Below are positions 6,095-44,752 of a stretch of 64,000 bases of DNA, one piece after another. The DNA lies in NCBI GenBank assembly GCA_937973585.1, contig CALJKN010000192.1:28733-92732 (forward strand), in the 5' to 3' direction. The DNA is from an uncultured Helicobacteraceae bacterium (GTDB lineage Bacteria > Campylobacterota > Campylobacteria > Campylobacterales > UBA6016). Position numbers and translations under genes: made by a program. The notes below the pieces were generated by a model. That model was not told the origin of the DNA, did not search any database, and was given only the letters and a program-made list of their open reading frames with translations. Each line of letters starts with the position of its first letter. The first letter of the stretch is position 1.

Positions 6095-6096
6095 AT

Positions 6097-7755: not shown

Positions 7756-7787
7756 AGAAATTCCCCCCTCTTCTTGCGCTTATTTTC

Positions 7788-8654
7788 TTAAAACTCTTTC
7801 AAATCGCTTTCATCTAACGGAAATATCTCATCCGCATCTTTTCTGCCTTGTGCAGGTTTTGCTTTTGCCGTTACGACAGGTCTATGTGATACCTGTCTTA
7901 TCTCTTTTTTTATAGGAGAAGATTGTTTGCTTACAGACTTCGGTGCTGAGTGTGGGTGATGTGAATCAACATCAATCCCGACTATTTTAGCAAGAGCCGC
8001 TACGGCTTCCAAGGCCGCTACGGCTTGTGCATTAAGCTCTTCCGATGCTGCTGCTGCCTCTTCCGAGTTTGCCGCTACCTGTTGGGTTACCTGATCTATC
8101 TGACCCATTGCGCTGTTTAGCTGTGTTAAACCCTCGGTTTGTTCTCTGCTTGACATTGCAACTTCGCCGATTAGGTCTGATACTTTTTTTGCTTTGTCTT
8201 CGATGTCTCTAAACGAGTTACTGGCTAGATTGGCTATCTCTGAACCTTTTTTGATTTGACCTACAGCTTCTTCGATGACTACGGCCGTCTCTTTTGCACT
8301 ATTAGCCGCTCTTTGTGCAAGGTTTCTAACCTCATCGGCAACAACCGCAAATCCTAGTCCGTGCTCCCCTGCCCTTGCTGCCTCCACTGCTGCGTTTAGC
8401 GCTAGTAGGTTTACTTGAAATGCTATCTGGTCTATTGTTTTTACTATGTTTGCTATTTTTGCAGCCGATTCGGTAACCTCTTGCATAGAACCTACAAGCT
8501 CTTCACCTTTGCTTAGACCCTCTTTTGCCGCTTTGTTTGCCTCTTTTGCCAATATATCTGCCTGTCTGGCGTTTTCAGTATTAGATGTAACGCTAGCCGT
8601 AGTCTCTTCGAGGGTAGCACTAACCTCTTCAACGCTACTTGCCTGCTCTGATGC
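7788..8654 (-). repeat. Copy B of the 867-bp direct repeat (3' part of MCP-2)
   Basis: See copy A. The first mismatch is 8655 (c) versus 6964 (a). Confidence 0.85.
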
Positions 8655-9449
8655 CCCTTGTGCCAAAGAGGTAGAGCTAGATGCAACTTGGTCTGCGGCA
8701 GATGTTATTTGCAAAGCACCCTCATTGATTGTGGTGACTGCTTCTGTTATTGAGCGGGTTACGGAGCGGATTATTAGGATGGAGAGCGAAACACCTATAA
8801 AAAGAGCCGTCAACACTACGACAATAGAGATATTTCTATACTCGCCGGAATCGCTTATTGCTTGCGAAACCATTGTCTCTGCACCTTTTTTGCTAATATC
8901 TAACATAACGGTAATCTCTTTAAAGCCGGCCTCTCTTACGGGGCGCATTTTTTCTATCATCGGCGTTATGCGTAAAAATAACTCCGATACTACCTTTTGG
9001 TCGTTTTCTTTAGAGATAGGCTCCAAGGCAGATGCAACAAGCTCGTCATTTAGTTTTTTCCATTCGGCGTATATTTTTTTAAATTCTTGCCAACTTTTCT
9101 CCTCCTCAGGGGTTCTCGGCAAAGGTTCGTATGTTTTCCACCCTTTTTCGATAGTCTCAAATCCGGCTTTGAATTTTGCTATAGAGTCAAGCATTTTACT
9201 TTTGTAGTCTGAATCACCGGCAAGACCTCGCACCCTATTGGCTTGAACGGCTACCTGATACACACCGTCTTTGATTGTATAAAGACCGTCAAGAGAGGGG
9301 AGATTATTTTTACCTATCTCCGTAGTCTGCATCGCCCATTTATCGACTCCGCTATAGACTATCGCACCTAACACCAAAAAACCAATAACCATCACTAACG
9401 TCAAAAGCACCAACTTGCTTTTCAAAACCATATTATCAAGCCAACCCAC
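7788..9449 (-). CDS. Methyl-accepting chemotaxis protein (MCP-2), GTG start
   Basis: 553 aa. Same topology as MCP-1. The C-terminal ~328 aa are identical to MCP-1 while the periplasmic sensor is unrelated in sequence. GGGGAA RBS lies upstream of GTG 9449. Confidence 0.9.
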
Positions 9450-9460
9450 CGTTTCCCCTT

Positions 9461-9952
9461 TTAGTTTTTACTCATCATATCAAGAGCCGACAACTCTTCG
9501 GCTTCAAATAGTTTTTCAAGATCCAAGATCATAACAACCGTCTCGCCAACTCTAGCCATATTTTTTATAAAGTCGATGTTGATGTTTGTCCCAAACCTCG
9601 GCGGTTCAGATATGTTCGCATCATCGATAGAGAGTACCTCTTCGACCTTATCGACTATAAAGCCGATACTAATTTTGTCTATTTCTACAATGATTATCGC
9701 AGTTTGCTCGTCATACTCAATATGCGGCATATCAAACCTAAGTCTTGTATCGATAACCGGAATAATCGAACCTCTTAGGTTTATAACGCCCACCACGTAT
9801 GCGGGTGTTTTAGGTACGGCAGTTGTTTTCATAATGGCTATTATCTCTTTAACCTGAGAGATATCGATCCCGTATTCCTCTTCCCCTAAAAAAAATGTCA
9901 AAAATTTATTTTTGGAGGCTTTTATGTGTGATTTTTCGCTCTCTTTCATCAT
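9461..9952 (-). CDS. cheW: Chemotaxis coupling protein CheW
   Basis: 163 aa. CheW pattern [18 protein letters not shown]...[13 protein letters not shown]. Its ATG overlaps the cheY stop (TAATG). Confidence 0.9.
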
Positions 9953-10338
9953 TAAATCCCTAAAACCATCTTGATGGATTTTACAAGTTTCTCATCGCTA
10001 AAAGGTTTAACCATCCATCCGGTCACTCCAATATCCTTGCCCATTTGCTTCATATCCGCCGAACTCTCGGTGGTTAAAATGAGTATCGGCTTTTGCTTGA
10101 ATCTGGCATCGTTTTTAATCTCTCTAGCAAGATCCAACCCGTTCATCTGGGGCATATTTATATCCGATATCAGCAGATCGAAGCTCTCGGCTCCGCTTTT
10201 TAAATTGGACAACAACTCCTCCGGATTTAAATACGTCTTAAACTCAACAACTCCAGAAGCTGCAAGCTCCTCCACAGCCATCTGCGCCGTTGCGAGAATG
10301 GTTTTTGAGTCGTCTACGAGTATTACTTTTTTAGCCAC
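9952..10338 (-). CDS. cheY: CheY-like single-domain response regulator
   Basis: Receiver residues are present: DD (ILVDDS), phospho-Asp (LISDINMP), T (LTTES), K (VKPF). I place the start at GTG 10338, preceded by GGAGG at 5-nt spacing. The longer track ORF (to 10476) would overlap the upstream transporter gene. Confidence 0.85.
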   Translation of the reverse strand: MAKKVILVDDSKTILATAQMAVEELAASGVVEFKTYLNPEELLSNLKSGAESFDLLISDINMPQMNGLDLAREIKNDARFKQKPILILTTESSADMKQMGKDIGVTGWMVKPFSDEKLVKSIKMVLGI

Positions 10339-10391
10339 TAGAACCTCCGTGTATCTTTTAAGTCGGTAGATTTTACTATATTTTTCAGTTT

Positions 10392-11462
10392 TTAGTATAT
10401 TTTTTTTGAACTTTGTAAAAGTCTGGAAGAGGCCAGAAACAAAGCCGCCACAAAAGGCCCCACGATAAACCCCCAAAATCCGAAAGTTGCCAGCCCTGCG
10501 GCTATCGAAAAAAATAGTAAAAACTCATTCATTTTATAGTCGGATCGTAACATTACGGCAACTTTTGAGAGCAAAAAAAGCCTCAAAAAATTATCTATCA
10601 AGAATGCCATCACAAACCAACTGTAAAAGGAGATAATAATAGCCCCTATGATGTTCCCCTGCAAAAACTCGTTAGCCGCAACCGGAACCCATACAAGAGC
10701 CGTCCCTAAAATCGGAACAACAGATGAGACAGCCGATAAAAAGCCTAGCATTGCCGCATCATAATCAAAAAATAGCATCAAAACATAAAAAGCAACCCCC
10801 TGTGCCGCCATGACACCAAGAAGGGTCAAAAATACAACGGATATAGCGCTTATAATCTCTTTTCCTAGCTCTTTTTTTTGTTCGGACTCCAACGGTATGA
10901 GCGGCTCAAAAAACCGGACGATATCTTTTTTGAACCAGTGGATTAAAAAGAAGAAAATAACAACCATGGCAAGTTCTGCCATAGATGATGCTACTTTGCC
11001 AAGTATCCCACCGACTATGGAGGCTATATTTTTACCCTCCTCTATCCAAAAAGATTCCGAATTTAGCCTCTCAATCAAGGCAATTGCTTCATTTTTTATC
11101 TGGAGGCTCAAAAAAGAGCTTTTTTGGATCGTCTCCTCAACTGTCCGGATCCAACCCTGTACGGATGAGATATCAAATCCGGATAGGTCATTCAATATAT
11201 ACACCGTAGAGTAGCCGATCGGAGCAAACAGTAAAACACCAAAAATAACGGTAAGGAGCGAAGCCGTTATAAGATTTTTGTTTTTTGCTATCAAATTTAT
11301 CCGGACATTAGAGAGTCTACCGTCAATTCTGTCCGAAAACTCGTATGTTGCCAAAACCAATAAAGATGCAACCAAAAAAGGTTTCAAAAAAATAGAAAAC
11401 AGCCATATAAATAATGCAAACGAGCATAAAAATAACCAACTAGTAAATTTCAATTTTTCCAT
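10392..11462 (-). CDS. AI-2E/PerM-family (UPF0118) membrane transporter
   Basis: 356 aa and polytopic throughout. Size and TM layout are typical of the AI-2E family. Family assignment is by pattern only. Confidence 0.65.
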   Translation of the reverse strand: MEKLKFTSWLFLCSFALFIWLFSIFLKPFLVASLLVLATYEFSDRIDGRLSNVRINLIAKNKNLITASLLTVIFGVLLFAPIGYSTVYILNDLSGFDISSVQGWIRTVEETIQKSSFLSLQIKNEAIALIERLNSESFWIEEGKNIASIVGGILGKVASSMAELAMVVIFFFLIHWFKKDIVRFFEPLIPLESEQKKELGKEIISAISVVFLTLLGVMAAQGVAFYVLMLFFDYDAAMLGFLSAVSSVVPILGTALVWVPVAANEFLQGNIIGAIIISFYSWFVMAFLIDNFLRLFLLSKVAVMLRSDYKMNEFLLFFSIAAGLATFGFWGFIVGPFVAALFLASSRLLQSSKKIY

Positions 11463-11648
11463 TATTTTAAACCTTCATATTACTAAGACGTTTTTATTAT
11501 ATCCGATTTTAAGCGATAAAGGCAGATAATATAGGCACAGTCAAGTACTGAAAACGCAAGGCAGTATCCCAAGGGTTGGGACGCACATCCTGTATGCACT
11601 ATCTACGATGTCAAGTTTTGCCTGCGCCTAAAAATATGAGGAGCAGCA

Positions 11649-12956
11649 ATGAGCTACGAACAATACCACTCTCTATGGAACAAACTAGGTATCGATACCC
11701 AAAAAATAACGGTCGGAGTTGACGGGGCAATCAAAAGACACGAAGAGGTGTTTTTGACGCAAAACAACAGACCGTCAAAAATGGAATACTTTGATGAGTT
11801 TTGGAGAAATCTACAAACGGGCAGAATAGCTGAACTAGACAAACTCAAAGAACAGGGCAAACCGCTTGTCGGAACATTTTGCATATTCGTTCCCGAAGAG
11901 ACTGTCGTGGCGGCAGGAGGTGCTTGTTACGGTCTATGTAGCGGCTCGCCAGCCTCTATACCTGAAGCCGAAAAAGAACTCCCTAGAAACATCTGTCCGC
12001 TAATCAAGTCTGCTCACGGCTTCAAGCTGCTAAAAATGTGCGGATACACTCAATCTGCAGACTTTATATACGGCGAAACGACCTGTGAGGCAAAGAAAAA
12101 AACATGGGAAGTTCTAAACACACACCATCCCGTTCATGTAATGCAAATCCCGCAAAAAAAAGATGAAAAAAGCATGGTATTGTGGGGCAAAGAGGTTGAA
12201 GAGTTCAACACGCATATCGAAGAGGTCGCCGGCAGGGAACTTAGTTTTGAAGAGATGAAAAATGCAACCGAGATTATCAATGCAAAAAGAGCTGCGCTTA
12301 GAAGACTAGACAAATTAAGGGGGATGTATCCTGATATCGTACCTATAAGCGGCAAAGACGGACTACTAATATCTCAAATATCGTTTGTAGATGAACCTAC
12401 CAGGTTTACCGAAATGCTAAACGAATTGTGCGACGAGCTAGAAAAAAGAGTATCACAAAAAAGCAGTGTTTTTGATAGCGATACGGCTAGGCTTATGGTG
12501 CTAGGCACCCCTTTTGCCGCTCCAAACTGGAAGTTACATCACATAGTAGAAACAAGCGGCGGAGCTATCATCAACGAAGAGTCTTGCATAGGGCACAGAT
12601 ACTACAAGGATGACGTAGAGCTTGACGGTGTCGGCACAAAAGAAGAGTTGACGGCAAAAATGATGCAAAGATACAAAAAAATAGATTGCGCTTGTTTCAC
12701 TCCGAACGAAGAGCGAATACAAAAAATAGTCTCCATGTTTAAAGAAAGAGAAGCGGACGGCGTTATTTATTATACGTTGTCATTTTGCCACACATACAAT
12801 GTTGAGTCTTTTTTGGTAGAAAAGGCGCTAAAAGCAGAAGGAATACCATATCTTGCAATAGAATCCGACTATTCACCGGAAGATGCCGGACAGATAAAAA
12901 CAAGGGTTGAGGCGTTTATCGAATCCGTTAAAGCAAAAAAACAGGCAAAAGCCTGA
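11649..12956 (+). CDS. 2-hydroxyacyl-CoA dehydratase / BcrC-HgdB-family protein (double-cubane-cluster-type reductase candidate)
   Basis: 435 aa. Spaced Cys residues typical of the family (FCIFVPEE, GACYGLCSG, NICPLIKS, TTCEAKKK, DCACFTP, SFCHTYN). GAGGAG RBS 5 nt upstream. TGATG overlap with the activase gene. Confidence 0.7.
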   Translation: MSYEQYHSLWNKLGIDTQKITVGVDGAIKRHEEVFLTQNNRPSKMEYFDEFWRNLQTGRIAELDKLKEQGKPLVGTFCIFVPEETVVAAGGACYGLCSGSPASIPEAEKELPRNICPLIKSAHGFKLLKMCGYTQSADFIYGETTCEAKKKTWEVLNTHHPVHVMQIPQKKDEKSMVLWGKEVEEFNTHIEEVAGRELSFEEMKNATEIINAKRAALRRLDKLRGMYPDIVPISGKDGLLISQISFVDEPTRFTEMLNELCDELEKRVSQKSSVFDSDTARLMVLGTPFAAPNWKLHHIVETSGGAIINEESCIGHRYYKDDVELDGVGTKEELTAKMMQRYKKIDCACFTPNEERIQKIVSMFKEREADGVIYYTLSFCHTYNVESFLVEKALKAEGIPYLAIESDYSPEDAGQIKTRVEAFIESVKAKKQAKA

Positions 12957-13702
12957 TGTATTGGGGAGTGGACATCGGCTCGACGTACACCAAAATAGCG
13001 GCATTGGATGCTAACGGTGGCGTATCCGAAGTTTATACGATACATACACTAGTCAACCAAGACGATAGAGTCATGGAGTTTTTAAACGGCAAAAATATAT
13101 CGTCCATAGTTGCCACAGGTTATGGGCGAGACATGATGAAGCAAAAAACTGGATGCAAAAGTATCAGTGAAATACAAGCTCACGCAAAGGGGGCTTGTAT
13201 GTTTTTTGAGGATACCTCTGTTGTTATAGACCTCGGCGGTCAAGACGCAAAAGTGATACAGATAGAAGACGGGCAATTTGTTGATTTTAGAATGAATGAT
13301 AAATGCGCCGCAGGAACGGGAAAATTTCTAGAAATTGCGGCAACAAGACTCGGATTCGCACTCGAAGAGTTTGGAGAAGCGTGCAAAAAATACGACAAGT
13401 TGATAGAAATATCTTCCATGTGTGCCGTATTTGCAGAATCAGAGCTAATATCCCTAATAGCCAAAAAAGAGAGTGCTGAAAATATAGGGGCAGGGGTACA
13501 CAATTCCGTGGCATCAAGGCTATCAACAATGGCTAGAAAATATCAGCTTGACAAAAGAGTCGTATTTACGGGTGGCGGAGCACTAAACCCGCTGCTTGTG
13601 GAAATGCTAGAGTTGCAATTGGAAATCAAACTATCTTTGCATCCTTATCCACAGCTAAACGGTGCAATAGGTGCTGCAAAAATAGCTTTTGACGGGGCTT
13701 AG
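12956..13702 (+). CDS. Acyl-CoA dehydratase activase (BcrAD/BadFG/HgdC-type ATPase)
   Basis: 248 aa. ASKHA motifs GVDIGSTYTKIA, DLGGQDAKVI, FTGGGALN, and NDKCAAGTGKFLE (bridging-cluster Cys context). Confidence 0.85.
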   Translation: MYWGVDIGSTYTKIAALDANGGVSEVYTIHTLVNQDDRVMEFLNGKNISSIVATGYGRDMMKQKTGCKSISEIQAHAKGACMFFEDTSVVIDLGGQDAKVIQIEDGQFVDFRMNDKCAAGTGKFLEIAATRLGFALEEFGEACKKYDKLIEISSMCAVFAESELISLIAKKESAENIGAGVHNSVASRLSTMARKYQLDKRVVFTGGGALNPLLVEMLELQLEIKLSLHPYPQLNGAIGAAKIAFDGA

Positions 13703-22044: not shown

Positions 22045-24882
22045 TTACGCTTTCTCTATTCTGCATAGTCCGCCTTTTGTTTCAGGCATCTGCGTAACGG
22101 AGTCAAAACCGTAGTTAGTAATCGTATTTACACTCTCACCGGTTGCATAAGGCTTGCACCCTTGCGGGTATTTGTGCGATAAATCTTCACCCTGGAATAC
22201 ACCGGCAAAATGGAAAGGCATAAATACGCTTTTTTCATCCACTTGATGGCTATATTTTGCTTTGACTTTGATTTTTGAACCCTCAGGAGAGTGAACCCAA
22301 ACCATCGAATTATTTTTCACCCCTAACTCTTTTGCAAGATTTGGATGAATTCTCACAAACATCTCAGGGACGAGTTCTGCCAGATATTTAGACGCTCTAG
22401 TCTCAACACCGGCACCGTTATATACAACAAGTCTTCCGGTAACAAGGTTAATCGGAAACTCTTTTGACCAGTCTTTCTCTTTTTGTTTTGTGATATATTG
22501 GGTATCAACACGGAAAAAGTCTTTTTTGTCTGCCTGAGCAGGGTATTTTTTGGCCAAATCTGCTCTTTGAGAGTGTATAGGCTCCCTATGGATTGGCAGT
22601 TTATCGCCGAGGTTCCACGCAAATGCCCTAGCTCTTCCGTTTCCAAAAGGTGCCAAACCGTTTTCAAGGGCTTTTTTGACAAGAATACCGCTTCTATCGG
22701 TTTTCCAGTTTTTCCCTTTTACCTTTTCGGCCTCTTCCGGCGATAGCGCAATACCTAATTTTGTTAGCTCATCAGGTGTTATCTCCCCGTATCCGCCTGC
22801 TACTTTAGAGCCGACAGGGGCAAATCCGTCACCCGCCATAAGGTTTACACCGTCTTTTTCATAAACAGTTACAACTTTGCCTTCGGCGTTTTTGTCCGTC
22901 CAGCCGTTTCTAAACCCTAGACCGCCCTCCATAACCGATTTTGAAGTATCGTATAGGTTTGGACTTCCCGGATGATTTTCGCTCCAACAAGGCCAAGGAA
23001 CACCGAAATACTCGTTAGCGCAAGTATCTTTGCCCATTAGGTCTTTGACGCTAAACAAATGCCAATTGTCGGAGTGCTTTTTTAGTCTCTCCGGCGTAGC
23101 CCCTTGCATACCGATCGTTAGTATGTTTTTGTTAATCTCTCTAGTCGCATCTTCCGGCCAACTAAAGTTTCCGTTTCCGTCGCCTAGCGATTTGGTGTAC
23201 TCTTTGTAAAAACCGAGTCTTTTTGCAAGCTCGAACATAATCTCTTGATCCGGTTTTGCCTCATGCACAGGCTTAACAACTTGATGTCTCCACTGTATTG
23301 AACGGTTTGTTGCAACCACCGAACCGCTTGTCTCCATCTGCGTAGCCGCCGGAAGCAAGAAGACGTTGTCTTTTTTGTCGGTTAGTACTGCCGCCTCGTT
23401 TACAAAAGGATCTGCCAAAACAATCAATTCTAGCTTGTCCAAAGCCGCTTTTACTTTTGGCTGTAGCGCCGTAGAGGTTATACCGTTACCCAAAACCACC
23501 AATGCTTTCAGGTTTGTTCCGCCGTTATATATCTTCTCTTCTTCCAATACCCCCTGATTCCATCTGGCAAGCGTAAAGCCCACTTTTTCCATCAGGTCTT
23601 TGGATTTGAATCTGCCTTTCATCCACTCGTAATCAACACCCCATCCGGCGCTAAAATGCTTCCAAGCACCTTCTGCTAAGCCGTAATAACCGGGAAGCGT
23701 ATCGGAGTTACAACCCATATCGGTAGCACCCTGTACATTATCGTGACCCCTTAGGATGTTACAACCGCCGCCTGCTTTACCCATATTGCCGAGAATCATC
23801 TGGATAGTAGGGGCAAGTCTTGCATTTGAAGCTCCTATGGTATGTTGCGTTAGCCCCATCGCCCACAATAAAGTACCCGGTTTGTTTTTGGCAAAAACCT
23901 CCGTTACCTCTCTTAGTAGGGCCGCCGGAACACCGGTAATATCTTGAACTACTTCCGGAGTATATTTTTTTGACTCCTCGATAGCTTTTTCCATACCGTA
24001 GACTCTGTTTAGGTAGAAATCTTTATCGTCCCATCCGTTTTGGATTATCAGATTTATCATCCCGTACATAAACGGTATATCGGTACCCGGTCTTACTCTG
24101 ACGTAATAATCTGCCTTTGCGGCCGTTTTCGTATATCTAGGGTCAACAACGATTATCTTTGCACCGTGATGCTCTTTTGCCCTTAATATATGCTGCATAC
24201 CTACAGGATGGTTCTCCGCAGGGTTTGAGCCTATTATCAATACGGCTTTAGAGTTTATGATATCGTTGATAGAATTGGTCATAGCACCATAACCAAAAGT
24301 ATTCGCCACACCGGCGACTGTAGTGCTGTGTCAGATTCTAGCTTGATGATCTATATTGTTCGTCCCGTAAAAAGCCGCAAATTTTCTGAAATAGTAAGCC
24401 TGCTCGTTATTTAGCTTTGCAGAACCCAAAAACATAGTCGAATCGGGACCGTTTTTGCTTCTCAATTCAGAGAGTTTTTTGGAGATTTTATTGAACGCTT
24501 CATCCCAGCTAATTCTCTTCCACTCTCCGTTTACTTTTTCCATAGGATGCTTGACCCTAACTTCGCTTCTGACCATGTCGATCATAGAAGCACCTTTGCA
24601 GCAGTAGCCCCCTTGAGATATCGGATGGTCTATTGCCATCTCTTGGCGTAGCCACACCCCGTTTTTGACCTCTGCAACTATTCCGCAACCAACTGAGCAA
24701 GCCGAACAAACGGATCTTACCAGTTTTGAGCCGGAATGTGCCTCTTTGAGGTTGGATGCTGTTTTTGTGACTGCCGTGTTAGCCAAAGCTCCGGTTGACC
24801 CGAAAGCGGTAGCGGCGGCGGCCATTTTTAGAAAAGAGCGTCTTCCGACCTTTGCAGGACGGACATCGTTTCTTGTTTCCAT
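22045..24882 (-). CDS. fdhA: Periplasmic formate dehydrogenase catalytic (alpha) subunit, selenocysteine-containing (UGA at 24333-24331)
   Basis: Track ORFs 24331..24882 and 22045..24309 are in the same frame and joined by one TGA. The read-through sequence is ...[30 protein letters not shown], the canonical FDH Sec context. Tat signal GRRSFLKMAAAATAFG. N-terminal 4Fe-4S Cys group CSACSVGCG. bis-MGD domains follow. Confidence 0.9.
24303..24317 (-). promoter_or_regulatory. Candidate SECIS hairpin for fdhA (UCGCC-GGUGU-GGCGA)
   Basis: Perfect 5-bp stem with a 5-nt G/U-rich loop starting 13 nt 3' of the UGA. Spacing is comparable to the E. coli fdhF SECIS (11 nt). Confidence 0.55.
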
Positions 24883-28666: not shown

Positions 28667-29697
28667 CGGATAAAATAATACGACTCACGCAAAGCGTAAA
28701 AGCGGCTGGTTGAGCGGCAAAAGCGGGCCCGTGCGGCCTACACGACGCATTGTCGGCCATAAAGCAAAACGCTAACGAAAAAGTAATAGTCGGCTTCGAT
28801 ACAAAAGATGATGCCGGTGTTTTTGAGATAGGCGACGGTCTTGTCTTGGTTCAAACCGTTGACTTTATAACGCCTGTGGTAGATGATCCGTACGAATACG
28901 GACAAATCGCCGCCGCAAACGCCCTAAGCGATTCGTACGCAATGAACATAAGGCCGCTTACGGCGTTAAATATCGCATGTTTTAATTTTAAAGAGTTTTC
29001 AGGCGAAACTCTAAAGGCTATATTATCCGGCGGTATGGACAAGGTATCTGAAGCTGGTTGTACACTCCTTGGAGGGCATACGGTTGAGGATTCGGAGATA
29101 AAATTCGGCCTTTCGGTTACCGGAATCGGTAAAAAAAATATGGTAGTAAGAAACAATACCCCAAAAGAGGGAGATTTGTTAATTTTGACAAAACCTTTGG
29201 GTAGCGGAATTATATCAACCGCTATAAAGGCAGGTGTTGCAGCCCCGTATCATATATATGAAGCCACTAAATGGATGAAAAAATTGAATAGATTAGAGGC
29301 TCTCTTGGATGGAAGGCTAAATGTTAATGCAATGACCGATATAACCGGTTTTGGCCTTATCGGGCACCTAAAAGAGATGCTATCCGAGCGGTTTTCGGCG
29401 GATTTGCATCTCGATAAAATACCGCTTATGGAAGGGGTCAAGGGGTATTTTTTGGACGGTTTCGTACCGGAGGGAAGCTATAAAAATAGACATGAATCCG
29501 GCGAAAATACATATATAAACGATGAGTTTTTTAATACATTGCTTTTTGATGCTCAGACATCGGGCGGGCTGTTAATATCCGTAGCGGAAAATATGGCAGA
29601 ACCCATATTGCAAGAGGCGAAAAATGCAGGTTTTTTGCAGGCGGCTATCATCGGAGAGGTAAAACAAAGGGTGGAAGCCGAGATTATAGGGGGATAA
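28663..29697 (+). CDS. selD: Selenide, water dikinase SelD, itself a selenoprotein (UGA at 28711-28713)
   Basis: The track ORF starts at 28750. Reading upstream in frame from ATG 28663 gives MTDKIIRLTQSVKAAG-U-AAKAGPCGLHDALSAIKQNANEKVIVGFDTKDDAGVF, the SelD N-terminal loop with Sec at the Cys/Sec position. Downstream motifs: GGHTVED, LILTKPLGSG. Confidence 0.9.
28725..28739 (+). promoter_or_regulatory. Candidate SECIS hairpin for selD (GGGCC-CGUGC-GGCCU)
   Basis: 5-bp stem (one G-U pair) with a 5-nt loop, starting 11 nt after the UGA. Confidence 0.45.
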
Positions 29698-29699
29698 AC

Positions 29700-29796
29700 G
29701 GCGAGAAGGCGAAGGAGTCGAACCTTCCTCCAGACAGCCACCTGTCCGGACAGTGGGTTTGAAGCCCATGACGCCCCCGGGGTCGTATGCCTTCCG
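29700..29796 (-). tRNA. selC: tRNA-Sec (anticodon UCA)
   Basis: Minus-strand read: GGAAGGC-AU-ACGACC-CCGG-GGGCGU...UGGG-CUUCAAA-CCCA...UCCGGACAG-GUGG-CUGUCUGGA...GAAGG-UUCGACU-CCUUC-GCCUUCU. This gives a 6-bp D-stem with a 4-nt loop, the same anticodon loop CUUCAAA as E. coli selC, a 9-bp extra arm and T-loop UUCGACU. The exact ends are uncertain by 1-3 nt. Confidence 0.85.
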
Positions 29797-29845
29797 TGTT
29801 TTAAAAAGAGGATTCTACACGAGTGAATATTAAAAAGAGTTATAA

Positions 29846-31195
29846 ATGATGGAAGAGCTAAAAAAAATACCGCAAATCGGAAAATTTCTTTTGAGAAAAG
29901 AGTTTGACGCCATAAACAAAACATCTTTACAAAAGATAATCAACAATTTTTTCTCAAAACTAAAAGACGGAGCAAAAAAGGGGCTTGCGATAAATCAAAG
30001 TCAGGATGAAATGGCAAAAGAGGTTTTGAAGATGTTAGACAATATTGCAGAAAACTCTTTAAAGCCGATTGTAAATGCGACCGGCGTAGTGTTGCATACA
30101 AATCTCGGCAGGGCTCCGATAGACAAGGAAATTATAGGTGAGGCCGAAAAAATAGCCGGATATTCAAATCTGGAATTTGATTTAAAAACAGGCAAAAGGG
30201 GGGAGAGGTATGCACATCTTGGGGAAAAACTCTCCTTTTTATTAGGATGTGAAGATGCCATAGTCGTTAACAACAATGCGGCGGCTGTTTTTTTGGTTTT
30301 AAACACCTTTTCAAAAAATAAAAATACTCTAGTCTCAAGAGGTGAACTAGTCGAGATCGGCGGATCATTTCGGGTTCCGGATGTTATGAGAGAGAGCGGC
30401 GCACTGCTAAAAGAGATCGGAACTACAAATAAAACAAAAATTTCAGACTATGAAAACGGGATCGATGAAAATACGGCAATACTGATGAAAGTCCACAAAT
30501 CTAACTTTTCGATAGTCGGTTTTTGCGAGGAGACCGATTTTTTGGATATTACTGCCTTGGCTGCAAAAAAAGGGCTGGTCGATTATTTCGATGTCGGTAG
30601 CCTTGCTCTTAAAAAATACGATTTTATCGGCGATGAACCTAGCGCTGAGGAGATTTTTTCAAATAATCCGTCGCTTGTCAGTTTTAGCGGCGATAAGCTG
30701 TTCGGCTCCGTGCAAGCCGGAATAATAGCCGGGAAAAAAGAGCTCATAGAAAAAATCAAAAAAAATCAACTCCTTAGGATGCTTAGAGTCGATAAGTTTA
30801 CTTTGGCAATATTGGAGGCAACTGTATCCAGATATATCGTAAGCGGTGAAAAGAAGATTAAAACGCTCCGTCTATTGTCAAAAACCAAAGAGCAGATGCA
30901 TAAAGAGGCAGCCACCCTACTCTACCTTTTAGGAAATAACCCTATTTTTAAGATTAAAGAGGGCGAAACTTTTGTAGGCGGCGGCTCTTTGCCCGGTCAC
31001 AAAATTCCAACCGTTTGCATAATAGTTGAGGATCAGGCCAAAAAAGCGGAAGCAAACCTAAAAGCACTCAGAGAGTACGGCATAATAGGTCGGATAGAAT
31101 CTGATGCCGTGGTGATAGATCTAAAAAGTGTAGACGAGGATGAACTCCAGATAATCGCCGAAGGGCTTAATAAAATATTCGGAACAAGACAATGA
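29846..31195 (+). CDS. selA: L-seryl-tRNA(Sec) selenium transferase SelA
   Basis: 449 aa. SelA pattern VVNNNAAAV, FSGDKLFGSVQAGII (PLP-Lys context). Confidence 0.9.
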   Translation: MMEELKKIPQIGKFLLRKEFDAINKTSLQKIINNFFSKLKDGAKKGLAINQSQDEMAKEVLKMLDNIAENSLKPIVNATGVVLHTNLGRAPIDKEIIGEAEKIAGYSNLEFDLKTGKRGERYAHLGEKLSFLLGCEDAIVVNNNAAAVFLVLNTFSKNKNTLVSRGELVEIGGSFRVPDVMRESGALLKEIGTTNKTKISDYENGIDENTAILMKVHKSNFSIVGFCEETDFLDITALAAKKGLVDYFDVGSLALKKYDFIGDEPSAEEIFSNNPSLVSFSGDKLFGSVQAGIIAGKKELIEKIKKNQLLRMLRVDKFTLAILEATVSRYIVSGEKKIKTLRLLSKTKEQMHKEAATLLYLLGNNPIFKIKEGETFVGGGSLPGHKIPTVCIIVEDQAKKAEANLKALREYGIIGRIESDAVVIDLKSVDEDELQIIAEGLNKIFGTRQ

Positions 31196-33015
31196 CCTCT
31201 GTAATTATCGGTCTGGCCGGACACGTTGACCACGGCAAAACAAGCCTGATAAAAGCAATCAGCGGCTTCGATGGAGATGAGACAAAAGAGGAGAAAAACA
31301 GAGGACTCACTATTGATCTTAGTTTTAGCTTTATAGAAAACGACTCAAAAAGGGTATTTTTTGTCGATGTGCCTGGGCATGAAAAGTTTGTAAAAAACTA
31401 CCTTGCCGGAGTATTTGGTTTTGACTCTCTTTTGCTTATCGTTGCGGCAAATGATGGGATTAGGGAGCAGACTTACGAGCACTTGCAGATTGCAAAACTA
31501 GCCGGAATCATAGATGTAAACGTTGTAATCACAAAAGTAGATTTAGCCGACACCCAAACAATACAAAAACTAAAAACAGATATTGCAACGCTACTAAAGA
31601 GTAACGGTTTTTTACTCGGAGATATTTTTTCATTTTCAATAAAAATCGATGGAAGCGGCGAAAAAATCAAAGACAAACTACTATCATCAAAGATAGAAAA
31701 ACGGTCCAAGGAGCCGCTTTTTAGATACTACATTGACAGGAGCTTCTCGGTTGAGGGGTTTGGAACCGTTGTAACCGGCAGTGCTCTCGGCGGCAAAGTA
31801 TCCAAAAAAGATAAAGTATATATCCCAAATATCAAAAAAGACGCAATAGTAAAAAATATAGAATCGGCAAAGCAGAGCGCCGATACCGCAAACCCTTCGG
31901 AGAGGATAGCCCTAAATATTGCAGGGATCAAATCCTCAGAACTACGAAGAGGTTATCTAATCGTTGCCCCAAATTATCTACGGGGTTTTAAAGAGATAGA
32001 CGTAAAAATAACCAGCCTAAACGATACCGGAATAAAGCACCTCTCCACCCTCTCAATGCACATAGGTTCGGCAAAACACGATGTAAAGGTAAAAATTCTG
32101 GAGGAAAACAAAGAGTTTTCATTTGCAACACTAGAGAGTAAAAATGATATCTTTTCGCTATTTTCAGAGAGATTTATACTCAGGAGTGAAACAGGGACTA
32201 TCGGTGGCGGCGTTGTCCTAAACCCTATAGCAGAGCCTATGAAAAAAAAGCAAAAAATAGAGTTTTTGACACTACTTGCCGATAATTTGATGATAAAAGC
32301 TTTTGAGATGCTAGTCGGTGTCCACAAAAAAGGGTTCGGACTAATCGGGGCGTACCAACGTTTCGGATTGGAGCAGGAGAAAGCCCTAGAGATGGCCTCA
32401 AAAATGGAAAACGTTTTTGTAGATATCGGCGAAAAAGTAGTCTATCCAACGGCTACGGCTGAGCTTTTAAAAGAGGAGATACTTAAAATATTTAAAAAAA
32501 ATAAAAGAGCTCTTTTGTCAAAAAATTCGATGAATAACAGATTTTCATGGGCCTCTGTTGCGGTTTGCGATTTTGCCTTAAAAAAACTGGAATCGGACGG
32601 TTTGCTAATCTTTGAAAACGGTCTTTATAAAAGCAAAGATTGCGATATCAAAGACATGAAGGCTTTTATAGAGGAGGCGATATACAAGGAGTTGGAAACG
32701 GGCGGGTTTTCACCGGTCGCCCCTTACAATATTTATGATGCCTTGGATATCGATAGAAAAACAGGGGATGAAGGGTTAAAAAAACTATGCTCATCGTCTA
32801 AAGCAATCAGACTCTCGCATAACCTATTTTTGACATCTCAAAATTTATCGGATGTAATGGTACTGCTTAGGAAAATAATCTCGGAAAAAGGTTTTGTGGA
32901 TATCGAAACGGCCAAAAAAGAGACGGGGCTAAGCAGAAAGTATCTGATAGGATATCTGGAGTATTTGGATAAATTTTCTGATATTAAAAAAGACGGACAA
33001 AGAAGGTTTATATAA
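31192..33015 (+). CDS. selB: Selenocysteine-specific elongation factor SelB
   Basis: 607 aa. GTPase motifs GHVDHGKT, DVPGHEKF, TKVD, and a long C-terminal winged-helix extension. ATGA overlap with selA. Confidence 0.9.
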   Translation: MTSVIIGLAGHVDHGKTSLIKAISGFDGDETKEEKNRGLTIDLSFSFIENDSKRVFFVDVPGHEKFVKNYLAGVFGFDSLLLIVAANDGIREQTYEHLQIAKLAGIIDVNVVITKVDLADTQTIQKLKTDIATLLKSNGFLLGDIFSFSIKIDGSGEKIKDKLLSSKIEKRSKEPLFRYYIDRSFSVEGFGTVVTGSALGGKVSKKDKVYIPNIKKDAIVKNIESAKQSADTANPSERIALNIAGIKSSELRRGYLIVAPNYLRGFKEIDVKITSLNDTGIKHLSTLSMHIGSAKHDVKVKILEENKEFSFATLESKNDIFSLFSERFILRSETGTIGGGVVLNPIAEPMKKKQKIEFLTLLADNLMIKAFEMLVGVHKKGFGLIGAYQRFGLEQEKALEMASKMENVFVDIGEKVVYPTATAELLKEEILKIFKKNKRALLSKNSMNNRFSWASVAVCDFALKKLESDGLLIFENGLYKSKDCDIKDMKAFIEEAIYKELETGGFSPVAPYNIYDALDIDRKTGDEGLKKLCSSSKAIRLSHNLFLTSQNLSDVMVLLRKIISEKGFVDIETAKKETGLSRKYLIGYLEYLDKFSDIKKDGQRRFI

Positions 33016-39875: not shown

Positions 39876-41141
39876 CTACAAAACCTGATACGCTATATCA
39901 CTTCTATATTGCATCCCGCCAAAGCTAACCGTAGACATCACCTCGTAGGCATTTTTTTGAGCCGTTTTGATATCGCCTCCAAAACCCACAGCCGCCAATA
40001 TCCTACCACCGTTTGCGTAAAGGCCGTCACTTCTGGCTTCAACACCGGCAAAAGAGATATGTCCTAAATTAGACATTTCGGATAATTTTTGTTCATCTAT
40101 CTCGATCTTTACCGGTGCGGTATTTGAATACGGATATTTTTCGCTTGCAGCTATAACGGCTACGCTAAAGCTGTTTTTGATGGAAAATTGTAGATTCTCT
40201 ACCTCTCCACCCGCACAAGCATCAAACAGCTCCAAAACATCACTCTCGATAAGGGTCATCAAAACCTCACACTCCGGATCGCCAAACCTGACGTTAAACT
40301 CCAATGTATACGGCTCATTATTCACAACCATTATCCCCGCAAAAAGGACACCCTCAAACGGACACCCCTCCGAGTGCATCGCTTTTACGGTAGGGGCTAT
40401 GATATTTTTTTCGATTTTTTCCATAATTTCAGGGGTACATAGCGGAGTCGGGGCATAAGCTCCCATCCCTCCGGTATTTGGCCCCTCATTGCCGTCCTTT
40501 AGCCTTTTATGGTCTTGCGCCGCAGGGAGAATTTTGTAGTTTACACCGTCCGTCAATGCAAAGACGGACAACTCAAATCCATCCAAAAACTCTTCTATGA
40601 CGACTTTTTTACCGGCATCTCCAAAGCTGTCGCCGTTTAGCATATCTTTTGCCGCTTCTTTGGCTTCATCTTTGGTTTCGCAGATTATAACCCCTTTGCC
40701 GGCACAAAGTCCGTCGGCCTTTACGACAATATAGCCATCCATGGCATCGATAAAATCGAATGCCTCGGCTTCACTGGAGGTCTCTATATATTTTGCCGTA
40801 GGGATATCGTATTTAGCCAAAATATTTTTCATAAAAGCTTTTGAGGACTCCAGCCTTGCCGCTTTTTTGGATGGGCCGAATATTTTTAGGTTATGTTTTT
40901 TGAATACATCTACTATGCCGGACGACAAAGGTGCTTCTGGTCCAACAATAGTCAAATCTATACTATTTTTCTTTGCAAAAGAGGCAAGCCCCTCATAATC
41001 GGTGATGTCGATATTCTCACCGACTCTACTTGTTGCACCGTTACCGGGTGCGAAATATAGCTTATTTAATTTTTTACTTTTTTTGACGGCTAATCCTATA
41101 GAAAACTCTCTAGCACCGTTACCGACTATTAAAACATTCAT
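39876..41141 (-). CDS. purD: Phosphoribosylamine-glycine ligase
   Basis: 421 aa. MNVLIVGNGAREFSI..., ATP-grasp core, GGMGAYAP. AAGGA RBS. Confidence 0.95.
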   Translation of the reverse strand: MNVLIVGNGAREFSIGLAVKKSKKLNKLYFAPGNGATSRVGENIDITDYEGLASFAKKNSIDLTIVGPEAPLSSGIVDVFKKHNLKIFGPSKKAARLESSKAFMKNILAKYDIPTAKYIETSSEAEAFDFIDAMDGYIVVKADGLCAGKGVIICETKDEAKEAAKDMLNGDSFGDAGKKVVIEEFLDGFELSVFALTDGVNYKILPAAQDHKRLKDGNEGPNTGGMGAYAPTPLCTPEIMEKIEKNIIAPTVKAMHSEGCPFEGVLFAGIMVVNNEPYTLEFNVRFGDPECEVLMTLIESDVLELFDACAGGEVENLQFSIKNSFSVAVIAASEKYPYSNTAPVKIEIDEQKLSEMSNLGHISFAGVEARSDGLYANGGRILAAVGFGGDIKTAQKNAYEVMSTVSFGGMQYRSDIAYQVL

Positions 41142-41169
41142 TTGTTTCCTTGGGAAGTTATAGAAAGGG

Positions 41170-41372
41170 AAAAAACCCGGACGGGCGTTCTCATTAGAGA
41201 CTTTGGTCCTCCAAAGTCAAGTATTTGTGCTCTAGCCCGACCTTTAGGCGGCAACCTCTCGGAAATCAGATCCTCAGGCAAGGCCACCGAACACACCGGC
41301 GGGTCATTATGAGCAGACTGTTTATAGTTCGTTAGGACCCAAAATTTTACGGGTAGCGCACCGTCCAGGAAA
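41170..41372 (-). ncRNA. ssrS: Rod-shaped structured RNA upstream of purD; candidate epsilonproteobacterial 6S RNA (purD RNA motif)
   Basis: Six nested helices found by eye (plus-strand coordinates): 41176-87/41357-69, 41201-10/41334-43, 41215-18/41316-19, 41228-32/41311-15, 41236-39/41300-03, 41247-52/41283-88. A symmetric ~13x13-nt internal loop is present. The closing helix is followed by U6 (41175-41170), 29 nt before the purD ATG. Confidence 0.55.
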
Positions 41373-41503
41373 AGAAGAGGCATTGTATGCCATCTTCGAT
41401 TAACAATAGCTTACAAACGTTTTTGGATGCGGCCTTTACTTACGGCTAATATTTATATTTTTAGGCATACAATAGCTTACATCATTAATTATCGGAGAGT
41501 AGG

Positions 41504-44500
41504 ATGGAGTGTCCTGTTTGCAATACACAAAACGGCGATGATTCAAATTTTTGCGTCGGATGCGGTACGCCTCTTGTATTTTTATGCCTACAATGCAGAT
41601 GTCGTGCCGATACGGGCGATAAGTATTGCCGTGAGTGCGGACATAGATTGGTTTTGGTCTCGGATACCAAGATAATAGAGTCAAAAAAAACTGCGGTTCC
41701 GTCTAAAATACAAACAAAACAACCGGTTGTAACAGATAGCATTTCCGAGAGGAGAACCGTCACCGTACTATTTGCGGATGTCTCCGGTTTTACCTCTATG
41801 AGTGAAAAACTGGATCCCGAAGAGGTTACGACTATTATGAATAACTGCTTGCAGATGATGGGAGATACGGTTACGGCATACGAAGGGTACATCGATAAGT
41901 TTATAGGCGATTGTATCATGGCGCTTTTCGGAGCACCTACCGCACACGAAAACGATCCAGAATTGGCTGTCAGGGCAGCAATCGACATGATGAAAAAGAT
42001 AGAGGACTATAACAAAACCCTCCCTTTAAAACTAGAAAAACCGCTCGGTCTCCATATCGGGATAAACACTGGACTCGTCGTAGCCGGACAGATAGGCTCC
42101 GATGCAAGAATGGACTATACGGTTATGGGCGATACCGTAAATCTCGCATCCAGACTCGAATCAAGCGCCACAAAAGGGCATATTTTCATCTCATCATACA
42201 CATACCATCAGGTAAAAAACCTGTTTGAGTTTATCGAACAAGAGCCGATTACCGTCAAAGGGAAAGCAGAGCCGGTAGCTGTATATGAGGTTATTAGGGC
42301 ACTCGACGTATCAGAGGTCAAAAATACGGTAACGTCAGATATTCCGCTTGTCGGTCGGATAAAAGAGATAGAGGCTCTCTCCGTGAGTGTAGAGAGACTA
42401 CAAAAAGGTGAAGGGCAAACGATCTTTTTGATCTCTGACCCAGGCTTTGGAAAAAGCAGAATCCAATCTGAGGTGAAAAACAAGTTTAAACAAAAAAATA
42501 CCCAAATCATAGAGGGGAGATGTCAATCATACGGCAAAAATACCGCCTACCATACGTTTATAGACATCTTCAAAAGGGTACTCGGAATCGACTCGGACGA
42601 TACAAAAGAGACCGTATCGTCGAAGCTCTCAATCGGGATATCCCTCTTGATAGGTGAGGACAAAGATAGGCTATCCGACGAGGCCAAGAGCGCCATTACC
42701 CTTATTGCCAGACTCTTTGATATAGATTTGTCGTCTCAGCTAGGTGTTTCGTTTTCGGAGATGTCGGCACAAGAGGTTCATACTGCCACCATAAGGGCTA
42801 TAGGGTGGTTTTTTGCGGCAATCAGCAGACAAAAAGCCACAATACTATCGATTGAAGATCTGCATAATGCCGATAACTCTACGATTGAGGTTATATCAAC
42901 ACTAATATCGGTCTCCAAAAATCACTCTGTGATGCTGCTTTTGATGGTTAGACCGGAAAAAAGCTCTCCGGCTTACAAGTTATTGCCGCTAGCTAGGCGG
43001 ATACTTGGTGATAGAGCCGTAGAGATGACTTTTGAGAGACTCAGCAGAAACGAATGTGAAGCGTTTGTGGGCTTTGCACTCGGAAGTCATGAGATACCGA
43101 GAGAACTTATGGAGCTGATAGGTATGCGCTCGGATGGAAATCCGCTGTTTTTACAAGAGATAGTAAGGTCGCTTCTGGAGCAAAACGTCATCGAACAACA
43201 AAACGGAAAAATAACCGTCAAAAAAGAGCTCTCGAAAGTCACAATCCCAAACTCAATCACGGGACTCGTAATTGCTAGATTCGATCAGCTAAGCCATCTT
43301 CAAAAGGAGATTTTAAGCAGGGCGGCCGTATTTGGTCCGTCGTTTAGCCAAAAGCTGATCGAAGCCACAGTCAAAGACCCCGGACTAAATAATGCCCTGG
43401 AAGAGCTAATCAACTCTGAGATGATTTTTGAATCACAATCATTTCCGGATGTCGAATACTCTTTTCATACGACATTTATACAGGAGGCTATATACGATAC
43501 GCTACTCCTAAAGAGGAGACAAGCACTCCATTTGGAGGCGGCCGAGACAATCAAAGAGGTCTACAAAGAGAGATTACAAGACTATGTTGAACAGTTAGCG
43601 GAGCACTATTTAAAAGGTGGAGACTACGATAATGCCTACAGTTTTTTGGTTCAAAGCGCCTACAAAGCAAAAGGGGTGTACTCAAACGAAAGTGCGGCAC
43701 GATTTTTTGAAAAGGCAATCGAGATAGCGCCTAATATCAAAGAACAAAATCCGTCGGTTGAAAGCCTGTTTGAGCCTTATTCGGAGATTTTAGAACTTCT
43801 TGGAAATATGGAGGGGGCAATATCGGCATGGGAGCATATAAAACAAAATGCTGCCGATAGCACAAAAAAAGCCGATGCCATGAGAAATATCGGACGGATA
43901 GAGGAGAAGCGTGGAAACAAAGAGCGTTCGGTAAAGATATACGAAGAGGCTTTGAAGCTTATATCGGACAATAAAGATAGCATAGAATACGCAAAACTAC
44001 TAATGAACCTCTCGTGGGTTCAAAACCGCTACAGGCAGACGGACGAAGCAATCAAAAACGCATCCGCAGCACTTTCGATACTAGAAAAAACAGAAAATAA
44101 AGAGCTTATAGCATTGTGTTGTAACAATCTTGCTGTCTTTTACGAGGGGCAAAAGGAGTTTGATACGGCACTCTCTTATAACGAAAAAAGCTTAGCACTT
44201 TTTGAAGAGGCAAAAAATAAAAGACAGATCGCAAATCTGGAGCTATCTTTAGGATACCTCAAAACAAAAATAACAAAAAATGAAGAGGCTCTAAAACATT
44301 TCAGCCGCTCTGCCGAACTAATGAATCAGATTGGAAGTAAGTTGGGAAGTGCGGCAGCACTATTGGCAAAAGGGAGGCTGTATGCAGATATCGGTAAGCA
44401 TGATGAGGCAGTTATAGCACTTAGCGCAGCACTATCCGACTTTAGAGATATGGAAGCAAAAAGAAAAGAGGCCGCCACTATCATATCTTTGGTGCAGGTA

Positions 44501-44743
44501 CTCATCGAACAAAAAAACCTTCAAGCCGGATACGACTATATAAACGAAGGGTTGGAGCTTACCGATACGGATGATTTTTTATCGGAGAGGGGAAAGCTAT
44601 ACAAACTATACGGCAGAGGCCTAAAATCAGAACATAAAGCTGCAGAGGCAAAAGAATACTACGAAAAGGCAGTGGAGATATTCGAGAAACTGGGTAGAAA
44701 AAATGATGCAGAGGATGCAAAAAAAGAGGGGAGCGGGGTATAA
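41504..44743 (+). CDS. Zinc-ribbon / class III nucleotidyl cyclase / STAND AAA-ATPase / TPR multidomain protein
   Basis: 1079 aa. N-terminal double zinc ribbon (CPVCNTQ..CVGCG..CLQC..CRECG). Cyclase domain (TVLFADVSGFT, DKFIGDCIMALFGAP, MGDTVNLASRLE). Walker A DPGFGKSR, Walker B LSIEDLH. The C-terminal ~450 aa is TPR-like. Confidence 0.85.
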   Translation: MECPVCNTQNGDDSNFCVGCGTPLVFLCLQCRCRADTGDKYCRECGHRLVLVSDTKIIESKKTAVPSKIQTKQPVVTDSISERRTVTVLFADVSGFTSMSEKLDPEEVTTIMNNCLQMMGDTVTAYEGYIDKFIGDCIMALFGAPTAHENDPELAVRAAIDMMKKIEDYNKTLPLKLEKPLGLHIGINTGLVVAGQIGSDARMDYTVMGDTVNLASRLESSATKGHIFISSYTYHQVKNLFEFIEQEPITVKGKAEPVAVYEVIRALDVSEVKNTVTSDIPLVGRIKEIEALSVSVERLQKGEGQTIFLISDPGFGKSRIQSEVKNKFKQKNTQIIEGRCQSYGKNTAYHTFIDIFKRVLGIDSDDTKETVSSKLSIGISLLIGEDKDRLSDEAKSAITLIARLFDIDLSSQLGVSFSEMSAQEVHTATIRAIGWFFAAISRQKATILSIEDLHNADNSTIEVISTLISVSKNHSVMLLLMVRPEKSSPAYKLLPLARRILGDRAVEMTFERLSRNECEAFVGFALGSHEIPRELMELIGMRSDGNPLFLQEIVRSLLEQNVIEQQNGKITVKKELSKVTIPNSITGLVIARFDQLSHLQKEILSRAAVFGPSFSQKLIEATVKDPGLNNALEELINSEMIFESQSFPDVEYSFHTTFIQEAIYDTLLLKRRQALHLEAAETIKEVYKERLQDYVEQLAEHYLKGGDYDNAYSFLVQSAYKAKGVYSNESAARFFEKAIEIAPNIKEQNPSVESLFEPYSEILELLGNMEGAISAWEHIKQNAADSTKKADAMRNIGRIEEKRGNKERSVKIYEEALKLISDNKDSIEYAKLLMNLSWVQNRYRQTDEAIKNASAALSILEKTENKELIALCCNNLAVFYEGQKEFDTALSYNEKSLALFEEAKNKRQIANLELSLGYLKTKITKNEEALKHFSRSAELMNQIGSKLGSAAALLAKGRLYADIGKHDEAVIALSAALSDFRDMEAKRKEAATIISLVQVLIEQKNLQAGYDYINEGLELTDTDDFLSERGKLYKLYGRGLKSEHKAAEAKEYYEKAVEIFEKLGRKNDAEDAKKEGSGV

Positions 44744-44750
44744 AACCCCG
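44734..44750. terminator. Bidirectional terminator hairpin (cggggt-ataaa-accccg) shared by the cyclase gene and efp
   Basis: 6-bp stem spanning the cyclase stop codon. T-rich tail on the plus strand (tcttatttt) and a T-run on the minus strand a few nt downstream. Confidence 0.55.
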
Positions 44751-44752
44751 TC

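Follow-up and report, generated by a model that had tools for sequence, protein, structure and literature searches.

Fusions of class III nucleotide cyclases with ATPases and helical repeats have been described before, and we analysed a protein of this kind that is encoded at 41504..44743 (+) of a 64-kb window (the whole stretch of 64,000 nucleotides under study, from contig CALJKN010000192.1 of an uncultured Helicobacteraceae bacterium). The closest studied architecture is that of Mycobacterium tuberculosis Rv0386 (also Rv1358 and Rv2488c), in which, as here, an N-terminal class III cyclase is accompanied by a MalT/AAA_16-type ATPase and repeats resembling tetratricopeptide repeats (TPRs) (PMC3789758; bioRxiv 10.1101/2024.03.06.583649); however, Rv0386 ends in a LuxR helix-turn-helix (HTH) domain that the present protein lacks, and it does not possess the zinc ribbon with which the present protein begins. 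Leptospira interrogans LA_4008, which has been proposed to act on host cells, and Myxococcus MXAN_4545 are likewise soluble proteins, of uncharacterised regulation, with an AAA ATPase and C-terminal TPRs following the cyclase (PMC3789758), but they carry two tandem cyclase domains, like mammalian soluble adenylyl cyclase (sAC), rather than one, and no zinc ribbon has been reported for them. Xanthomonas campestris XC_0250 resembles the present protein in joining a class III cyclase to an uncharacterised TPR region and in being a cytoplasmic source of messenger, yet it makes cGMP and adjoins the gene of its receptor, the GGDEF protein XC_0249 that binds cyclic nucleoside monophosphates (cNMPs) (PMC3770947), whereas the catalytic residues here predict ATP as the substrate and none of the contexts that we examined has a linked receptor gene. 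In full-length mammalian sAC (ADCY10, sACfl), a class IIIb cyclase is followed, as here, by a predicted P-loop domain of the STAND type (signal transduction ATPase with numerous domains) whose function is still open (PMC12802110; PMC2613629); the catalytic unit of sAC, however, is a C1–C2 pseudo-heterodimer within one chain, whereas the single cyclase domain of the present protein would have to homodimerise, and the STAND regions are likened by architecture, not by sequence.

The individual parts of the protein have closer counterparts elsewhere. By both sequence and fold, the nearest catalytic domain is that of Pseudomonas aeruginosa CyaB (PDB entry 3r5g), with identical metal-binding, Lys/Thr and Asn/Arg motifs. 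CyaB is itself membrane-anchored, with an N-terminal MASE2 sensor and without STAND, TPR or zinc-ribbon regions. The nearest regulatory fold, and the likely mechanistic template, is that of PH0952 of Pyrococcus horikoshii and Escherichia coli MalT (PMC6468293), although the outputs of these two are DNA-binding domains, whereas the output here is a cyclase, and identity is only ~12%. The features that define the architectures of Rv0386, LA_4008/MXAN_4545, XC_0250 and sAC, or the TOMM system kinase/cyclase fusion TIGR03903, are absent from the present protein. A LuxR/GerE HTH of the Rv0386 type was not found by Pfam to E 0.1, and the structural model consists of TPR hairpins through residue 1077; in place of the tandem C1–C2 pair of sAC there is one cyclase domain; and the match to TIGR03903 scores 246.6 bits where the equivalog cut-off is 705.75, and covers profile positions 279–919 of 1267, with no kinase domain. 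The protein is instead best filed as a member of a large, database-annotated zinc ribbon–cyclase–STAND–TPR family that is known by annotation, not by experiment, and as a genomic finding it is unexceptional, one more protein of an annotated family and not a new system.

An earlier note on this DNA, made from the sequence by a model, had read the locus as a single gene for a 1079-residue protein with a double zinc ribbon, a cyclase, a Walker-type NTPase and TPR-like repeats, and without a DNA-binding domain. That description is accurate. The gene is a single open reading frame (ORF) that starts with ATG, stops with TAA and encodes 1079 residues, in which Pfam recognises all four regions: DZR/Zn_Ribbon_1 at residues 3–46, Guanylate_cyc (PF00211) at residues 83–257 (E 2.4e-33; score 115.7 bits, the gathering cut-off being 21.9; profile positions 6–176 of 183), AAA_16 at residues 281–476, and several TPR families (TPR_12, TPR_2 and TPR_MalT, the last a weak match) over residues ~697–1020. 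No DNA-binding or HTH family is detected by Pfam in the 1079 residues down to E 0.1, and the motifs that had been quoted lie where they were placed (FADVSGF at residue 90, DKFIGDCIMA at 131, MDYTVMGDTVNLASRLE at 203, DPGFGKSR at 312 and LSIEDLH at 448). Membrane anchoring is ruled out, there being no transmembrane segment (the highest 19-residue Kyte–Doolittle mean is 1.37).

An AlphaFold2 (AF2) monomer model, built from a 71-sequence alignment (mean predicted local distance difference test score (pLDDT) 83.8, predicted TM score 0.65), refines these boundaries, all on the plus strand. The double zinc ribbon occupies residues 1–50 (41504..41653), with CxxC pairs C3/C6, C17/C20, C28/C31 and C42/C45, and is delimited by Pfam, by conservation of its cysteines and by a pLDDT of ~84. 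It is followed by a disordered, non-conserved linker, residues 51–80 (41654..41743; 53–81 in the model), where the pLDDT is 32–40 and identity falls to 7–10% even in close homologues. The class III (IIIb-type) cyclase homology domain spans residues 81–265 (41744..42298; 82–266 in the model), as placed by PF00211, phmmer, Foldseek and conserved residues. The STAND nucleotide-binding oligomerisation domain (NOD) then covers residues ~281–655 (42344..43468) by AAA_16, invariant residues, AF2 and Foldseek, and in the model comprises an α/β nucleotide-binding domain (NBD, ~281–510), a helical domain (~515–560) and a winged-helix domain (~585–655). The remainder, residues ~657–1079 (43472..44740), consists entirely of helical hairpins, supported by the TPR family matches, AF2, invariant columns and Foldseek; the hairpins at 657–1077 form an arm and then ~7 TPRs with a capping helix, and the pLDDT of arm and TPRs is mostly 83–96.

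The cyclase domain looks catalytically competent, as had been proposed from the sequence. All six residues expected of an active site are present, namely the metal-binding D92 and D136, the substrate-specifying K132 and T206, and the transition-state N213 and R217. In an alignment of 120 sequences (the query and its 119 closest homologues), D92 is retained by 116 of the 117 homologues that align at that column and K132 by all 118 that align at theirs; position 136 holds Asp in 113 sequences and Glu in 4; T206 is found in 119 of the 120 sequences, and N213 and R217 in every one. The best PDB match of the cyclase by sequence is the CyaB catalytic domain 3r5g (phmmer, E 2.7e-40), whose motifs align with those of the present protein residue for residue (DKF.GDC and MDYT..G..VNLASRLES), and none of the six residues is misaligned with respect to 3r5g or to the family alignment. 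Foldseek likewise matches the cyclase part of the AF2 model to 3r5g with a TM score of 0.85, a root-mean-square deviation (rmsd) of ~3 Å and 40% identity. The sole low-confidence stretch of the domain in this monomer model is the dimer-interface hairpin (residues 195–207). Both halves of the active site reside on one chain, which indicates an enzyme of the homodimer type.

Class IIIb is defined by Thr (or Ser) in place of the substrate-binding Asp (PMC2613629), and the presence of T206 at this position, paired with K132, assigns the present domain to it. A response to inorganic carbon has been found in all prokaryotic class IIIb enzymes tested (PMC2613629), and CO2 or bicarbonate may therefore modulate this enzyme as well. 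From the Lys/Thr pair and the match to CyaB, which carries the same two residues, we infer that the substrate is ATP, a well-supported assignment that agrees with the ATP-type class IIIb reading of the earlier note. For Rv0386, Castro et al. are said to have found in 2005 that the substrate is selected by Gln/Asn rather than Lys/Thr. That the product is something other than cAMP, such as cGMP or another nucleotide, seems to us improbable. The Xanthomonas protein of cyclase–TPR layout is a guanylate cyclase (PMC3770947), as is the second-best structural match of the domain, Cya2 (2w01, 40% identity); however, Cya2 has Glu at the position of the adenine-specifying K132, a version of Cya2 engineered into an adenylate cyclase (6fht) has DKF like the present protein, and the highly conserved K132 and T206 both match the adenylate cyclase CyaB.

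Downstream of the cyclase, both the motifs and the order of folds are those of a predicted STAND NTPase with a TPR sensor, similar to MalT and PH0952. Walker A is SDPGFGKS at residues 311–318 (with G314, G316, K317 and S318) and Walker B is E451–D452; two further elements were assigned by their position in the AF2 model, R483, which closes the β-strand 476–482, as a sensor-I-like residue and G545-N546-P547, which precedes the helix 547–559, as the GxP motif. These ten residues (G314, G316, K317, S318, E451, D452, R483, G545, N546 and P547) are invariant or nearly so in the family alignments, and these conserved motifs together with the AAA_16 match bear out the NTPase that had been read from DPGFGKSR and LSIEDLH. 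When the whole model is compared with the PDB by Foldseek, the top match is 6MFV (PH0952, a STAND protein with a TPR sensor), with E 3.7e-15 over 751 columns, TM scores of 0.33 (query) and 0.47 (target), an rmsd of 10.9 Å and the ~12% identity given above; the low TM scores are as expected from differing relative orientations of the domains, and the order of NBD, helical domain, winged-helix domain, arm and TPR is the same in both. The matches of the model also include the TPR structures of LGN and OGT. Conserved polar positions of the TPR region include G797, W838 and N874, which on the concave face are joined by the likewise conserved R794, R798 and N875, and this region as a whole is 33–50% identical across phyla (Campylobacterota to Magnetococcales), a level similar to that of the NTPase. 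Such conservation fits better with a sensor that binds a conserved cellular ligand than with one directed at a fast-evolving phage target.

The family to which the protein belongs is broad. A full-length search yielded 7760 significant matches, the best ~100 of which have the same length and the same architecture; full-length relatives occur in metagenome-assembled genomes of Campylobacterota (51–67% identity), in Magnetococcales (~40–45%) and in Latescibacterota and Anaerolineae (~30%), and those that are named are annotated as 'class 3 adenylate cyclase/predicted ATPase/TPR' or 'adenylate/guanylate cyclase domain-containing protein'. The STAND–TPR part alone (residues 266–1079), searched against 1.84 billion cluster representatives (50% identity), retrieved 7233 representative clusters at E ≤ 1e-30. 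When the best 150 of these 7233 representatives were scanned with hidden Markov models derived from our own alignment, a cyclase domain was found in 125 and a zinc ribbon in 70. In relatives without a cyclase, the N-terminal part is a GGDEF domain, an OmpR/SARP-type winged helix or just the zinc ribbon, or is lacking altogether. A GGDEF output, too, needs dimerisation. The attachment of the same STAND–TPR unit to a cyclase, a GGDEF domain or a winged helix fits a generic proximity-inducing switch, and thus a general module that is placed mostly on outputs requiring dimerisation. Examples without a cyclase are P0257, P0197 and P0165, in which the module is combined with GGDEF, an OmpR/SARP-type winged helix, or a zinc ribbon in the absence of an enzyme domain. 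Many relatives (P0170–P0211) are ~2200–2350 residues long and have the module doubled in tandem (zinc ribbon, cyclase and STAND–TPR, then cyclase and STAND–TPR again), an arrangement suggesting that two cyclase domains, both under the control of a switch, pair within one molecule, and some relatives, such as P0225, P0281 and P0296, carry two adjacent cyclase domains.

This breadth also changes how the zinc ribbon is to be seen. The earlier note had called it an unusual addition, which is not the case: the eight cysteine columns are conserved in 88–95 of the 120 aligned sequences and, given also its frequency among the STAND–TPR representatives (70/150), the ribbon is commonplace in the family and a hallmark of it. 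Its apparent absence from the 91%-identical relative P0002 is a gene-calling artefact, as its coding sequence lies upstream of the start that had been called. A literature search on zinc-ribbon cyclases returned nothing relevant. On its flexible tether of ~30 residues, the ribbon probably serves the family as an additional module for interaction or regulation. The note as a whole was accurate in observation and largely right in interpretation, but overstated rarity.

We hypothesize that the protein is a soluble, cytoplasmic, homodimer-type adenylate cyclase of class IIIb in which a ligand of the TPR/arm region relieves STAND autoinhibition and ATP-driven multimers assemble the active sites, a reading that we regard as probable, if by no great degree. 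TPR-type STAND proteins such as MalT rest in an autoinhibited, ADP-bound state from which an inducer drives multimerisation; in PH0952 and MalT, the inducer binds to the arm and TPR and opens the protein, and nucleotide exchange and multimerisation come next (PMC6468293). By analogy, the present protein would rest as a closed, ADP-bound, autoinhibited monomer whose cyclase domain is kept from forming the head-to-tail homodimer in which, for class III enzymes, one chain would contribute the two metal-binding Asp residues and the other the Lys, Thr, Asn and Arg. A ligand or partner protein bound at the arm and TPR sensor would open the NOD, which would exchange ADP for ATP and allow the protein to multimerise; we infer that the multimers would then bring cyclase domains together and switch on cAMP synthesis, with cAMP then acting on receptors whose genes lie elsewhere in the genome; the tethered zinc ribbon is predicted to act as an accessory interaction or regulatory module. 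In outline this agrees with the earlier note, which had proposed a signal-gated generator of cyclic nucleotides and had left its trigger and target open; that is the best inference available.

Several observations weigh against this proposal. The first residue of Walker A is Ser, not Gly, in most family members; since 101 of the 120 aligned sequences carry Ser there, this is a family-wide variant. In full-length mammalian sAC, the only well-studied STAND cyclase, added nucleotides left activity unchanged relative to the truncated form (PMC12802110), so that control of a cyclase by a STAND domain is as yet a proposal, not a demonstrated mechanism. The related XC_0250 makes cGMP, not cAMP (PMC3770947), and a cAMP product is for this reason not to be assumed here. 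Lastly, no cAMP receptor was found in the 64-kb window, and no phosphodiesterase turned up there, although no search was aimed at phosphodiesterases.

The sAC result bears in particular on the main alternative, namely that the cyclase is constitutive, or regulated by inorganic carbon only, and that the STAND–TPR region is a scaffold, a localisation module or the seat of a separate function rather than a gate. None of the nucleotides tested distinguished full-length from truncated sAC (PMC12802110), the isolated cyclase domain of the XC_0250 type is active alone (PMC3770947), and the same is recorded for the isolated Rv0386-type domain in what PMC3789758 cites from Castro et al. 2005. However, strict conservation of Walker A and B, sensor I and GxP across phyla argues for a working nucleotide switch, and the same STAND–TPR module is fused to other outputs that depend on dimerisation; we therefore regard an ungated cyclase as unlikely, though deserving of serious consideration.

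A bolder version of the proposed switch can be drawn by analogy with NLR proteins, as a 'cyclasome' in which a cytoplasmic ligand of the TPRs triggers ATP-dependent STAND oligomers, these oligomers create active cyclase dimers, and the tethered zinc ribbon provides a second input through redox or metal sensing or by docking a partner. We consider this a possible but rather doubtful elaboration of the more general proposal. If true, it would constitute a new mode of activation for class III cyclases and give the orphan STAND domain found in mammalian sAC a bacterial model that is easy to work with. Cyclase–STAND–TPR proteins are very abundant, as the cluster counts above attest, and the question of how a STAND switch would control a cyclase is one that they share with full-length mammalian sAC. 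The present gene, which is compact and has a single cyclase domain with all motifs intact, is a reasonable candidate for biochemistry.

To look for partners of the protein we compared nine distinct homologue contexts. Relatives at 41–67% identity lie in unrelated neighbourhoods, many of which hold signalling genes, with nearby genes that include those for GGDEF/EAL, HD-GYP and NUDIX proteins, PAS histidine kinases, a methyl-accepting chemotaxis protein (MCP), TatD and nirS-type haem d1 functions, and no partner gene recurs over the nine contexts apart from TatD in two related Campylobacterota contexts. A gene for a TatD-family hydrolase lies directly or nearly downstream in L001 (9763..10530), in L002 (9688..10458, the same place) and in L027 (11554..12342); it does not occur at the window locus, and its position downstream of orthologues is probably residual synteny. 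In the Magnetococcales context L028, a gene for a protein with REC and metallo-beta-lactamase (Lactamase_B_2) domains (11270..12502 (+)) shares 4 nt with the orthologue at the latter's 3' end; in this single context, its product may be a candidate cyclic-nucleotide phosphodiesterase partner. Within the 64-kb window, neither Pfam scans of 30 further ORFs and of the flanking genes nor a phmmer search of 301 ORFs with E. coli CRP detected a cNMP-binding protein. The flanking genes are purD and efp, and the earlier statement that no cNMP-binding protein or obvious effector lies nearby holds; nor does any partner gene adjoin the cyclase gene.

These contexts also bear on the hint, given in the earlier note, at a role in antiphage defence, in which the protein would be an Avs- or Pycsar-like antiphage or abortive-infection sensor whose TPRs detect a phage protein and whose cyclase makes an alarm signal for a distant effector. 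The layout of an N-terminal effector, a STAND domain and C-terminal TPRs does resemble that of Avs proteins, STAND clades of defence and non-defence type are interspersed (PMC13581612), and PADLOC models for PycC match the cyclase domain; those matches, however, reach at most 98.6 bits, below the 115.7 bits of the generic Pfam cyclase, and are probably attributable to the homology among all class III cyclases. Apart from PycC, PADLOC returned one generic TPR model, and no Avs or other STAND defence model matched at E up to 0.1. The PDB matches listed by phmmer and Foldseek include no structure of a Pycsar cyclase, and the Lys/Thr pair predicts ATP rather than pyrimidines. With respect to neighbours, the homologue in L009 adjoins McrBC and ParE, the sole context of the nine with a defence gene, and a PhdYeFM/PIN toxin–antitoxin pair lies ~2.5 kb downstream of the homologue in L028; in contrast, an effector with a cNMP-binding domain adjoins the gene in none of the nine contexts (here the flanks are purD and efp), and the gene pairing of a Pycsar system is accordingly absent. 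Avs/AVAST and bNACHT systems were rejected in the same manner, there being no match to a defence STAND model and no enrichment near defence genes (1/9 contexts). Taken with a native composition, a position that is stable over at least 22 contigs and a sensor conserved from Campylobacterota to Magnetococcales, unlike the fast-evolving sensors of phage, these data leave the antiphage suggestion unsupported, and we judge a defence function to be very improbable.

At the locus itself, purD and its leader RNA lie on one side of the cyclase gene and efp on the other, with an RND efflux operon, serA and rpsA beyond efp. The cyclase gene's GC content (0.433) and GC3 (0.444) are within the range of neighbouring genes and no mobile-element genes flank it, on which grounds an origin by horizontal transfer or as part of an island was rejected. 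The identical protein is present on at least 22 public metagenome contigs, with the same flanking genes in all six contexts displayed, and a 91%-identical relative occupies the same purD/efp position. The earlier description of the gene as wedged between housekeeping genes is therefore true at this locus, but what it reflects is ordinary loss of synteny, not an island. The gene had also been credited with its own terminator. A GC-rich hairpin (GCGGGGT-ATAAA-ACCCCGT, 44733..44751, not assigned to a strand) is indeed present, overlapping the cyclase stop codon; efp, however, is convergent to the cyclase gene, with its stop at 44753, and because the hairpin ends 1 nt before that stop it is most likely a bidirectional terminator shared by the two genes. 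On the other side, the purD RNA motif (Rfam RF01069) matches at full length at 41175..41305 (-), within the purD 5' leader; it scores 48.2 bits, the gathering score being 41. An 81-residue ORF at 41138..41383 (-) coincides with this motif and is for that reason almost certainly not a gene. To our knowledge, the purD RNA motif is restricted to Campylobacterota; along with the best protein matches, one of them a 55%-identical protein from a Campylobacterota metagenome-assembled genome, it places the organism in that phylum.

Other features of the window are separate from the cyclase gene. A complete chemosensory cluster at 437..10476 (-) encodes CheB, CheD, an extra histidine kinase, CheR, CheA–CheW, two 4HB MCPs, CheW and a response regulator, and is followed by an AI-2E family transporter. 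At 11649..13702 (+) lies a pair of genes resembling the 2-hydroxyacyl-CoA dehydratase D-component (HGD-D) and a BcrAD/BadFG-type activator ATPase, adjoining moeA and an ABC transporter of the molybdate/tungstate type. A selenocysteine utilisation cluster extends over 22045..24882 (-), 28750..33015 and 29705..29794 (-); within it, an in-frame TGA at 24331–24333 (...HQARI*HSTTVAGV...) divides the formate-dehydrogenase alpha subunit, and FdhD, a SelD-like AIRS protein, tRNA-Sec, selA and selB are encoded nearby.

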